From Flavobacteriales bacterium (lineage in GTDB: Bacteria; Bacteroidota; Bacteroidia; Flavobacteriales_F; PHOS-HE28), in assembly GCA_016712535.1 (NCBI GenBank), contig JADJQW010000002.1:1556458-1620457 (forward strand): a stretch of DNA of 64,000 nucleotides. Reading direction: 5' to 3'. The translations under genes and the position numbers were made by a program. Under the pieces are notes generated by a model, which saw nothing but the letters and a program-made list of their open reading frames with translations, was not told where the DNA came from and searched no databases. Each line of letters starts with the position of its first letter. The first letter of the stretch is position 1. Of this stretch, positions 14,058 to 16,334 are shown in pieces.

Positions 14058-16334
14058 ATGAAGAAGAATAAGTTCCTGGGCTGCCTGGCGGCCTTGACGA
14101 TAACGCTCCATGCGAGCGCACAATTGGATTGGAATACTGCGGGGAATAACATCACCGGCTTCGAGTGGTTCGGGGCTGATGGCACCAGCACCATCCCGCT
14201 GCAGATCCGGCATGACGCAGATCAGCCGATCGAGTGGTACACCAATGCCATCCGGCGAATGTACCTGCAGCAGGACCTCAGCTATCAGATCGGCTCATTC
14301 CCGGGACAGGACAAGTTCGGCCATCTGCTGCTGAGCCCCGATGTGGATGTGTTCTTCAGCAACCTAACGTATGCGCGCGGGCCATTTACTCTGCTGCATC
14401 TAGCGGCGGCTACGGACAATGCACAGGAAGTCAGCTACAGGCCTTGGATGAATACGGGTATCACCTTCACGGGCAATGCGGACCACGGCTACGTGGGGCA
14501 GAAGGCTGGTGAACTGGATTACACGGATATGGTGATCCATTGGAGCGACAACCCCGGTGAGACCTTGAAGGACCGCATGCGCTTCATCTTCACCAGCGGC
14601 TTCAACAGCGCGGCCAGCGGCGCTGAGAGCGAAGAGGGCCTGGAGTTCATGCGCATGTGGCCAAATAGGTATGAGGACCCTCACATCGGGGTGGGCGATT
14701 TCTATGCGGCCAACCTGGCGGACAATACCATCACCGAACCCACCGAACGCCTGGACATGGTGAACGGGCGCCTGCGCATCCGCGACCTTCCTGAAGCCAG
14801 CGGAGAGGCTACTGGCACCTACAAGGTGATGGTGGTTGACGATGCCGCCAGCGGCGATGAGCGCGGGGTGGTGAAATGGGCCACCTTGCCCACGCCGCCG
14901 GCCGGAGACGATTGCGATTGGGAGTTGGATGAAACGACCAACCGTCTTTGGACCGCTACGGCTCCCATCGGTACGAACGATGATTGCCCGGAAAAGGATT
15001 GGCTTGTTGGCATTGGTACTTCAGCAATGGCCTACAAGCTGGACATAGATCACGATGGCAGCACGGATCCGATATCCGGAGGCTTGCGTGTGAAGTACAC
15101 GACAGGCCAGAGCGGCTGGACTTATGGCGTGAAGTCGGATCTCGTGCCTTCATCAGGCGGCTCCATGCAGTATGCCGCAGGGGTGCAAGGCTCTGTATCC
15201 AAAGCAACGCAAGAGGGTTGGGGCTTACGAGGCACTGCGGAGGCGAACGCCTCAACCACGGTCGTTGTCGGCGGTGTCGAAGGCAACGCGTTAACCACTG
15301 CGGGTACGGTGACTTCTGCGTACGGGAACAAAGGCAAAGTCAATCTCGGCAGTGGCGCTACCACCACTGAGGCCAAGGGGCTGTACGGCTTGATCGAGGC
15401 CGGCGGCGGAACGGCTACCAAAACTTATGGCGTGTATGGTTATGGCGTTCAGGGCACAACCGATACATATGGAGCGTACCTGTGGGGCAATGGTCCCACG
15501 GACGCGACTGTGTACGGTGTGTACGGGCGCGCAACAGGTGGTGGCACCAATGGGTTCAGGTATAGCGTTTATGGCGAGAATGCGGGTTCAGGGGCGAATG
15601 ACTGGTCCGGGTATTTCCCTGGCCGATGCTACATCGCCGGTACCACATACTCTCCGTCGGATTCGAATTTGAAGACCGGTGTTGAGGTGCTTTCGGGCGC
15701 AACCAGCATGCTCATGCAACTGAACCCTAAGCGATACCAGTACCTTGCTGATGACCACCCACAGCTCGGACTTCCGTATGGGGATCGATTCGGGTTCCTT
15801 GCTCAGGAAATGCAAGCAGTCTTCCCACAATTCGTCACCGAAGTGCATCAACCCGCTGCGTATGATGCTGATGGAAACGTATCTGCCGATGCGATGGATT
15901 TCCTCGGGCTTAGCACAACCGAGTTGATTCCGCTGCTCGTCGCGGGCTTTCAAGAACAGCAGGCACAGATTGCCCAGCTCCAAGAGCAGCTGGCCATTTG
16001 CTGCGGCAACCCTGACGGTTCAGAACAGCGTTCCGGTTCCGCTGTGGATGAGGAAGGTCTCACCCCCGCCCAAGAGCGCCTGCTCCGTATCGCGCCCAAT
16101 CCGTTCACGGACCGCACCACATTGTTCTGCACCCTCGAACGCGCGGGCCGCATGCAGTTGTTGGCCAACAGCGCCGAAGGCCGCAGCCTCTTGGTGCTGA
16201 GCGAGGGCCAGCGCGAGGCCGGTGAGTTCCAGTACGAGTGGAGCACCGAGAACCTGGCGCCCGGTGTGTACTACATCACCCTCTTGCTCGATGGCGAGCC
16301 GGTGGTGAAGCGCGCGGTGAAGGTGGGGAGGTAG
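14058..16334 (+). CDS. tail-fibre-like protein with peptidase S74 (endosialidase-type intramolecular chaperone) domain followed by T9SS type-A C-terminal sorting domain
   Basis: Signal peptide 'MKKNKFLGCLAALTITLHASAQ'. Gly-rich 'GVYG' repeats. 'SDSNLKTGVEVLSGATSMLMQLNPKRYQY...YGDRFGFLAQEMQAVFPQFV...LIPLLVAGFQEQQAQIAQLQEQLA' is an S74 chaperone-like block with a coiled coil. The C-terminus 'IAPNPFTDRTTLF...GVYYITLLLDGEPVVKRAVKV' is a T9SS sorting domain. Confidence 0.7.
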   Translation: MKKNKFLGCLAALTITLHASAQLDWNTAGNNITGFEWFGADGTSTIPLQIRHDADQPIEWYTNAIRRMYLQQDLSYQIGSFPGQDKFGHLLLSPDVDVFFSNLTYARGPFTLLHLAAATDNAQEVSYRPWMNTGITFTGNADHGYVGQKAGELDYTDMVIHWSDNPGETLKDRMRFIFTSGFNSAASGAESEEGLEFMRMWPNRYEDPHIGVGDFYAANLADNTITEPTERLDMVNGRLRIRDLPEASGEATGTYKVMVVDDAASGDERGVVKWATLPTPPAGDDCDWELDETTNRLWTATAPIGTNDDCPEKDWLVGIGTSAMAYKLDIDHDGSTDPISGGLRVKYTTGQSGWTYGVKSDLVPSSGGSMQYAAGVQGSVSKATQEGWGLRGTAEANASTTVVVGGVEGNALTTAGTVTSAYGNKGKVNLGSGATTTEAKGLYGLIEAGGGTATKTYGVYGYGVQGTTDTYGAYLWGNGPTDATVYGVYGRATGGGTNGFRYSVYGENAGSGANDWSGYFPGRCYIAGTTYSPSDSNLKTGVEVLSGATSMLMQLNPKRYQYLADDHPQLGLPYGDRFGFLAQEMQAVFPQFVTEVHQPAAYDADGNVSADAMDFLGLSTTELIPLLVAGFQEQQAQIAQLQEQLAICCGNPDGSEQRSGSAVDEEGLTPAQERLLRIAPNPFTDRTTLFCTLERAGRMQLLANSAEGRSLLVLSEGQREAGEFQYEWSTENLAPGVYYITLLLDGEPVVKRAVKVGR

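Follow-up and report, generated by a model that had tools for sequence, protein, structure and literature searches.

Within the 64,000-nt stretch of contig JADJQW010000002.1 of a Flavobacteriales bacterium analyzed here (the window), the gene at 14058–16334 on the + strand encodes a 758-amino acid (aa) protein that is probably a chromosomally encoded bacterial counterpart of phage tail fibres, exported via Sec and then a type IX secretion system (T9SS), trimerised, and cut between P533 and S534 by its own Peptidase_S74 (S74) domain. The open reading frame (ORF) is as delimited in a previous sequence-only reading of the window, which had interpreted its product as a phage tail-fibre intramolecular chaperone domain joined to a T9SS cargo protein. 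The protein is 100% identical to NCBI entry MBK8226784.1, with the automatic name 'MAG: tail fiber domain-containing protein [Flavobacteriales bacterium]'. It consists, in this order, of a signal peptide, a conserved N-terminal domain (N-domain), a hypervariable Gly-rich region, the S74 domain, a heptad coiled coil with a Cys-Cys pair, a disordered linker and a type-A T9SS C-terminal domain (CTD). The coordinates and the basis for each assignment (AF2, AlphaFold2; HMM, hidden Markov model) are as follows:

14058–14120, + strand: Sec/SPI signal peptide of the fibre protein, aa 1–21; inspection of the sequence, predicted cut ASA↓Q22
14121–15047, + strand: conserved N-terminal domain of the mature fibre, aa 22–330; many invariant residues, ends in VGIGTxx(P)xxKLxV
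15048–15656, + strand: hypervariable Gly-rich beta region, aa 331–533; composition, low conservation, spaced motifs
15657–15923, + strand: Peptidase_S74 intramolecular-chaperone alpha/beta core, aa 534–622; PF13884, AF2, Foldseek, PHROG tail-fibre families
15657–15674, + strand: catalytic motif S534-D-S-N-L-K539 with predicted autocleavage P533↓S534; invariance and SDxxxK alignment
15924–16004, + strand: C-terminal S74 helix, a heptad coiled coil ending in C648-C649, aa 623–649; AF2 helix at module residues 109–136
16005–16082, + strand: flexible Gly/Ser/acidic linker, aa 650–675; AF2 disorder
16083–16331, + strand: type-A T9SS C-terminal sorting domain, seven-stranded beta-sandwich, aa 676–758; family HMM matches, motifs, fold

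Three sets of homologues were used. An alignment and profile set of 105 served to assess residue invariance, 60 were scanned with Pfam and TIGR HMMs (T9SS-model matches counted at E ≤ 0.01), and 95 provided the spacing measurements from the motif Ser to the Cys-Cys pair, from there to the Pro-Asn-Pro (PNP) motif, and from PNP to the C-terminus.

Domains of the fibre protein

The block that had been likened to the self-cleaving chaperone of endosialidases and phage tail fibres is indeed recognized by PF13884 with 43 bits (cut-off 22, E 5.8e-11, aa 534–593), as are all 60 of the 60 scanned homologues. The expected Ser-Lys dyad is present as S534/K539 with a spacing of +5, and S534, D535, and K539 are invariant in the 105 homologues. 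Since the S74 domains of the family average only ~41% identity, invariance of the dyad is hard to explain without catalysis, and the domain looks catalytically competent. A family profile matched the solved chaperones of S16 gp37 (6F45, E 5.9e-13) and of the MyRF ICA (7DC3, E 1.9e-11), and also 8JOV (tail fibre) and 3GUD (GA-1 neck appendage). In the alignment, SDxxxK corresponds to SDRRIK in 6F45, SDERLK in 8JOV, SDERHK in 3GUD, whose chain starts at the motif Ser, and ADLRAK in 7DC3, the crystal of S587A MyRF. The AF2 model of aa 515–758 has a mean predicted local distance difference test score (pLDDT) of 87.5, with the S74 core mostly above 90, and its best Foldseek match is 7DC3 (E 1e-4, TM score 0.66 on target), with 3GW6 and 3GUD also found. 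Matches to PHROG tail-fibre families are confined to S74 and the residues immediately preceding it, and a phmmer search of the full-length protein against the PDB gave noise matches to nanobodies only. Trimer-dependent Ser-Lys cleavage at a Pro-Ser junction is established for MyRF and endoNF; MyRF S587/K592 are equivalent to endoNF S911/K916, and MyRF is cut at P586↓S587 in the trimer only (PMC8326128). Self-cleavage has also been shown for the S74 domain of Bd3182 from Bdellovibrio (PMC10769870). The window protein has the MyRF-type Pro-Ser junction, at P533↓S534.

The sequence-only reading had placed a type-A CTD directly behind S74. The CTD stands, but it does not follow directly: the coiled coil of aa 623–649, the Cys-Cys pair and a linker of ~26 aa intervene. 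Both this coiled coil with its Cys-Cys lock and a conserved partner gene, described below, had been overlooked. In 64 of 95 homologues, the distance from the motif Ser to the Cys-Cys pair is 114, 121, 128, 135, 142, 149, or 156 residues, i.e., it changes in steps of seven, and a second series is shifted by a 2-residue indel. The a/d positions of the coiled coil are I624, L627, F631, Q634, I638, L641, L645, and C648, such that C648 occupies heptad position d and C649 position e (codons 15999–16004). Each of the two cysteines is at least 90% conserved in the 105 homologues. Taken together, spacing, register and Cys-Cys pair would mark a trimeric coiled coil whose end is sealed by a ring of inter-chain disulfides; matrilin and collagen III trimers end in similar rings. 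Indirect support for a putative S74 homotrimer comes from the heptad periodicity and the a/d register. The subsequent linker has pLDDT values below 50 at aa 654–667, and the distance from Cys-Cys to PNP is mostly 30–37 residues with a mode of 33 (95 homologues). This linker is the likely site of PorU-type processing.

Evidence for the sorting domain comes largely from the family. While the CTD of the window protein itself remains below the thresholds of the T9SS models, 38 of 60 homologues match PF18962 and 40 of 60 match TIGR04183, with best E values of 5.9e-9 and 1.8e-8, respectively. The window CTD aligns over its full length with these homologous CTDs. P680-N681-P682 is invariant; G708, G736, Y738, and K755 are each at least 90% conserved; and the distance from PNP to the C-terminus is 78–79 aa in 85 of 95 homologues. 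AF2 predicts seven strands over aa 676–756 and places G708 in the β3-β4 loop and K755 in β7. The β3-β4 Gly and the β7 Lys are motifs shown to matter for T9SS function (PMC11285876). Using Foldseek, we found the CTD of Tannerella mirolase (8QB1) among many generic Ig-like folds. Family HMMs, motifs and predicted fold therefore support reading the C-terminal beta-sandwich as a sorting domain of T9SS type A. The outcomes that the sequence-only reading had named as fatal to it, a lack of significant S74 or sorting-domain HMM matches or a dyad that is not conserved, did not occur. T9SS signals are also found on three more proteins of the window, namely the partner (TIGR04183 23.2 bits, cut-off 23), a sulfatase (25.6 bits) and a protein with PKD repeats (type-B CHU_C), which strongly implies that the organism has a T9SS.

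At the other end of the protein, the signal peptide that had been proposed reads MKKNKFLGCLAALTITLHASA followed by Q. By inspection, a basic n-region (MKKNK) leads into a hydrophobic core, and the cut would fall at ASA↓Q. No member of the family alignment deviates at M1 or Q22, and the invariant Q22 fits the Bacteroidetes Q-rule, according to which Gln is expected after signal cleavage (PMC5837995). The adjoining N-domain (aa 22–330) shows a mean pairwise identity of 44.5%, rising to 54% for aa 131–240, and reaches a pLDDT of 70–85 solely at aa ~55–235. We found no match to this domain in Pfam (E ≤ 10), PHROG, or the PDB.

The Gly-rich region that had been noted from the sequence contains 23% Gly in aa 331–530, compared to 7–9% elsewhere and 11% in the short linker. 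It carries about nine motifs of the [YW]G[VL]xG type, one per ~16–17 residues, and is the least conserved of all regions with a mean identity of 25%. AF2 predicts beta-hairpins here with a pLDDT of ~60; Pfam gave nothing for the region (E ≤ 10), and PHROG matched only in the stretch just before S74. In some homologues the corresponding position holds YadA_head (2 of 60), collagen, or ice-binding beta-roll repeats. Presumably, this region forms the distal tip of the mature fibre.

Identity matrices calculated for different regions of the fibre barely correlate (rho 0.07–0.18). The fibre genes are therefore mosaics of separately inherited modules, like phage tail-fibre genes and the mosaic adhesive trimer (MAT) fibres of Bdellovibrio bacteriovorus. 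We also noticed near-identical CTD sequences (e.g., ...ERLLRIAPNPFTDRTTLYCTLERAGRMQL...VKRAVKVGR) on fibres with widely different S74 and tip regions, which suggests either module shuffling or homogenisation of CTDs within a genome.

Distribution, genomic setting, and partner gene

Scanning 185,579 species genomes with the closest full-length homologues yielded 133 relatives. The best 80 of these, which we examined, all come from metagenome-assembled genomes (MAGs) of uncultured Flavobacteriales or Bacteroidota, mostly from activated sludge and lakes, and a genome often encodes several fibre paralogues in differing contexts. A search of 2.9 million viral contigs retrieved a single relative, through its S74 part only. 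The nearest S74 domains of sequenced phages are 31–38% identical and belong to cyanophages and to phages of Pelagibacter, Roseobacter, and Ochrobactrum; no Bacteroidota phage was among them. This low identity and the hosts of these phages speak against the graft of the sequence-only reading being a recent one. Nor is the combination of S74 with a T9SS tag unusual, as had been thought. With a profile of the C-terminal module, comprising S74, the Cys-Cys coiled coil and the CTD, we detected 3,238 representatives of clusters at 50% identity (E ≤ 1e-30). A score at this threshold was assumed to require both domains, and this was checked in the best 150, in which essentially the whole profile is covered and nearly always ends at most ~10 residues from the C-terminus of proteins of 228–1446 aa.

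Among 130 new module-bearing representatives, 19 contain a pair of complete S74 cores followed by just one CTD. Examples of this arrangement are P0249, P0340, P0268, and P0330, metagenomic proteins which, like others of the kind, are 900–1450 aa long and carry two cores with SDxxxK and GxIAQE motifs. These proteins have a single signal peptide, one Cys-Cys pair and one T9SS CTD and, judged by their sequences, look like self-cleaving 'polyfibres'.

The fibre gene is chromosomal and not part of a prophage. Together with its partner gene it forms a cassette that sits among genes for secreted proteins and housekeeping genes (ndk, DHH phosphoesterase, MutL, topoisomerase IV, RhlE). The 64-kb window contains neither a second copy of S74 nor a copy of a similar CTD, and a scan for sigma-70 promoters and terminators was uninformative. 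GC content at third codon positions (GC3) is 0.68–0.70 in the cassette (12900–16334) compared to 0.76–0.95 in neighbouring genes, with a minimum of 0.58 in the S74 segment. The lower values could reflect horizontal exchange or recombination among paralogues. The partner gene lies immediately upstream of the fibre gene:

13005–14015, + strand: partner gene, 336 aa counted from M36 of the ORF opening at 12900; signal peptide, ~230-aa domain, type-A CTD at aa ~267–336

The signal peptide of the partner ends in ...FLANS↓QNLVPNPSFEE and the ~230-aa domain that follows contains conserved Cys. Of 80 related loci, 71 encode a full-length partner homologue on the strand of the fibre gene and upstream of it, and some loci have two tandem copies. 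In seven of the nine loci without a partner the contig breaks at the fibre gene and in another there are just 654 nt upstream, leaving one locus that has sufficient upstream DNA and lacks the partner. The gap between the two genes is mostly 20–46 bp (49 complete pairs). The ~230-aa domain has no match in Pfam (E ≤ 10), PHROG, or the PDB; of 33 partner homologues 26 match PF18962 and no other Pfam family is found, and every match below E 0.2 in a PDB profile search is a T9SS CTD. We could detect 852 members of the partner family, none of which bears a name other than one derived from the CTD.

Proposed mechanism and alternative explanations

We propose the following sequence of events for this probable T9SS-exported, self-cleaving trimer. 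S74 and coiled coil would register three chains, and the Cys-Cys pair at heptad positions d and e would lock the stub by closing a ring of inter-chain disulfides. The CTDs would then bring the assembly to the T9SS and, after correct folding of the trimer, the S534/K539 dyad would cut at P533↓S534. Cleavage would free the mature fibre (aa 22–533) from a stub of chaperone, coiled coil and CTD, and it would be this stub that is trimmed or anchored by a PorU-type sortase. The conserved N-domain may keep the fibre attached to the cell, perhaps by way of the co-secreted partner, with the variable tip binding diverse targets. The proteins with two S74 cores and one CTD imply that the pieces stay together until after export; their architecture would argue either for delayed cleavage or for cut pieces which remain associated.

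Several points weigh against this proposal. The evidence for it is wholly computational. The structure was predicted as a monomer, and we infer both trimerisation and the disulfide ring; to our knowledge, no T9SS cargo has been shown to be exported in trimer form. On its own, the window protein scores just 14.6 bits with PF18962 (cut-off 27, E 0.04) and does not match TIGR04183 at E ≤ 0.1, and no T9SS machinery gene lies within the 64-kb window. The AF2 monomer model of aa 1–536 is poor (pLDDT 59.9), its Foldseek search against the PDB gave nothing under E 0.7, and profile A5 of the mature part has no PDB match. Given this poor model and the lack of a solved relative for the mature part, the label 'fibre' rests on composition, the S74 context and the repeats in some homologues. 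Finally, the role of the partner as a dock or tip for the fibre is a guess. The partner co-varies solely with the first ~110 residues of the mature fibre (rho 0.45), an ambiguous result, since the co-varying part is adjacent DNA and linkage explains it as well as protein contact does.

The order of events could differ. According to the sequence-only reading, the protein trimerises and cleaves in the periplasm; the cut fibre would then be co-exported non-covalently with the chaperone-CTD stub and dissociate outside. We give this order real weight, while regarding it as rather unlikely. S74 cleavage fires on trimer formation (PMC8326128), which speaks for an early cut. T9SS cargo is generally thought to fold in the periplasm, where disulfide formation by the Cys-Cys pair would also be expected, and proteins with two S74 cores and one CTD equally fit cleaved but associated pieces. 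However, premature dissociation would strand the fibre in the periplasm, and endosialidase-type proteins reportedly (Schulz and colleagues, in 2010) release the cleaved chaperone. A different possibility is that S74 is a trimerisation and folding module that does not cleave, and that the intact protein is anchored on the surface at its CTD-processing site like ordinary type-A cargo. Such an intact chain would avoid the problem of separating passenger and export tag, and MyRF trimerises mainly through its coiled coil (PMC8326128). Nevertheless, invariance of S534, D535, and K539 throughout the 105 homologues, at ~41% S74 identity, and cleavage at the identical motif in Bd3182, MyRF, and phage proteins make this explanation improbable.

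Doubt may also attach to the C-terminal beta-sandwich, which could be an Ig-like adhesive or capping domain as in the tips of MAT fibres without S74, with export by another route. The sub-threshold HMM score of the window CTD, the many generic Ig-like folds in the Foldseek search and the match of 9 of 60 homologues to FlgD_ig would be compatible with such a domain. We consider this very unlikely, given that two thirds of the homologues match T9SS models and that the domain has an invariant PNP, the conserved β3-β4 Gly and β7 Lys, an extreme C-terminal position and a constant length; moreover, a domain beyond the cleavage site would be discarded with the chaperone and would make little sense as an adhesive tip. 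The least credible explanation, in our view hardly worth entertaining, is that the tail-fibre gene belongs to a prophage or to what is left of a phage. The PHROG tail-fibre matches, the NCBI name and the deviating GC3 of the cassette (0.68–0.70 vs. 0.76–0.95) point in this direction, but the PHROG matches cover only S74 and the stretch just before it, and neither a Sec signal peptide nor a T9SS CTD has a role in a virion protein. In addition, the flanking genes encode Ndk, the DHH phosphoesterase and further T9SS cargo, 2.9 million viral contigs hold no member of the family save for the one S74-only match, and genomes carry several copies of the cassette in different contexts.

Beyond the probable export and cleavage of the fibre itself, we tentatively suggest, as a possibility we would not yet favor, that fibre and partner represent an unrecognised class of Bacteroidota appendages. 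This would be a T9SS-exported counterpart of MAT fibres in which S74, and not PorU, decides on release and the partner serves as dock or tip. If so, a homotrimer with three sorting domains, or tandem fibres behind one tag, would pass through or assemble at the T9SS, and this secretion system would be able to handle disulfide-locked oligomeric cargo.

Relation to known systems and neighbouring genes

The closest described system is the S74 subgroup of the Bdellovibrio bacteriovorus MAT fibres, e.g., Bd3182. MAT fibres begin with a signal peptide, have a conserved domain at the N-terminal end and differ in their mosaic tips, and 13 of 21 end in a self-cleaving S74 domain with SDxxxK (Caulton et al., 2024; PMC10769870). 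Because they already have S74, the presence of this domain on a bacterial surface fibre is not a new idea. Like the family described here, for which a surface fibre is inferred, they are encoded by chromosomal bacterial genes, start with a signal peptide and a conserved domain, are diversified in the distal part and occur as many mosaic paralogues per genome; S74 has the SDxxxK motif in both. A further possible likeness is the 'capping-loop' motif, as the family motif VG[IV]GTxxPxxKLxV is spaced like VGVGTTAPTSALHV in 8OJN. Through VGxGTxxPxxxLxV, profile A1 matched the MAT structures 8OJN and 8OML at E 0.07–0.14, profile A5 matched none, and Foldseek of the poor N-terminal model listed 8ONC at E 5.7. 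Homology of the fibre bodies to MAT fibres is thus not supported by these comparisons. In MAT fibres S74 comes last, whereas here it is followed by the Cys-Cys coiled coil, the linker and the T9SS CTD. The two systems also differ in phylum, in export route and in the partner gene, as none is described for MAT fibres. The MAT paper makes no mention of T9SS or Bacteroidota and names no route of export across the outer membrane (PMC10769870). The present family is set apart from MAT fibres by its phylum and partner gene, by the Cys-Cys lock and by a T9SS tag that lies beyond the cleavage site.

With phage S74 proteins (K1F endosialidase 3GW6, GA-1 3GUD, S16 gp37 6F45, and T5 pb1) the window protein shares the HMM family, the fold, the Ser-Lys spacing of +5, the position of S74 right after a beta-rich fibre part and a C-terminal helix, which in the phage proteins is a trimeric coiled coil. 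It differs from them in not belonging to a virion, in its Sec signal and the secretion tag downstream of the chaperone, and at the level of identity (31–38%). The best structural match, the MyRF ICA (7DC3), has the same Pro-Ser junction. In MyRF, S74 is preceded by a functional N-terminal trimer and followed by a C-terminal element for localisation, and cleavage releases the trimer, as we propose for the fibre; where MyRF has a transmembrane helix at the C-terminal end, the window protein has a sorting domain, and a fibre takes the N-terminal place of the DNA-binding domain of MyRF. Cleavage freeing a trimer from its membrane anchor, as in MyRF, is the best functional analogy. The proposal also agrees with phage and Bdellovibrio MAT fibres, in which the binding tip becomes exposed on cleavage.

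Known type-A T9SS cargo resembles the window protein in its Sec signal with Gln at +1, the CTD of ~80 aa with a 3+4 beta-sandwich and conserved β3-β4 Gly and β7 Lys, and the flexible linker before it. The type-A cargo known to us consists of monomeric enzymes or adhesins, unlike the presumed homotrimer with three CTDs and a predicted self-cleavage site between passenger and tag. Trimeric autotransporter adhesins such as YadA and Ata are likewise trimeric surface fibres (presumed here) with a C-terminal module for trimerisation and export, and a few family members contain YadA_head repeats. In contrast to these adhesins, the fibre has no beta-barrel anchor, would use a different secretion system and would have its passenger cut off instead of retained; an HMM scan for the YadA-type beta-barrel anchor domain gave no match in the window protein or the 60 homologues. 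A 362-aa 'tail fiber domain-containing protein' of Tannerella forsythia, WP_046825792.1, has been detected in outer-membrane-vesicle proteomes (PMC10682907). As T. forsythia is cultured and has a T9SS, this protein could be a cultured handle on Bacteroidota S74 proteins.

In literature searches, we came across no paper connecting T9SS to S74 or to intramolecular chaperones. The design is common in metagenomes and automatically annotated in databases, yet undescribed in the literature searched. Self-cleaving S74 fibres are known from phages, from MyRF and, since 2024, from the Bdellovibrio surface, and T9SS cargo is well known; a cleavage site between passenger and export tag raises the question whether a folded, disulfide-locked trimer is exported and when it is cut. 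The main value of the fibre is as a naturally occurring test of the way T9SS deals with oligomeric cargo that cleaves itself, and its C-terminal 225 aa are a potential portable probe of this in Flavobacterium johnsoniae. The ~3,200 clusters and the partner point to an abundant, unstudied type of surface fibre in environmental Flavobacteriales of activated sludge and lakes, whose variable tip suggests that its binding has diversified, with particles, prey, neighbours, or phage as targets. Coupling to T9SS shows one export route that can be joined to S74-terminated fibres, which is a hint for MAT-like fibres as well.

Upstream of the cassette lies a run of genes for secreted proteins. It includes the PKD gene (4294–10371, +), whose product of 2025 aa has about nine PKD repeats and a type-B CHU_C signal. 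Its end abuts that of a convergent gene (10372–12453, −) for a Gly/Ala/Thr-rich protein of 693 aa, which probably starts at an internal MKQTVVLAVSGLIAISSAAQ signal. The 693-aa protein has no Pfam match and a weak match to a PHROG 'tail protein' (E 1e-6, aa 485–642), and no T9SS tail was recognized on it. We considered it as a paralogue of the fibre and rejected this (BLASTP E 4); it may be another phage-like surface protein. Three regions on the other side of the cassette (36129–37658, 48950–53560, and 54340–57360, all +) encode the sulfatase, whose type-A T9SS domain gives the TIGR04183 score mentioned above, and two further proteins that are likely secreted, a 1536-aa protein with PKD and P-domains and a 1006-aa reprolysin-like metalloprotease with fn3 and PPC domains.

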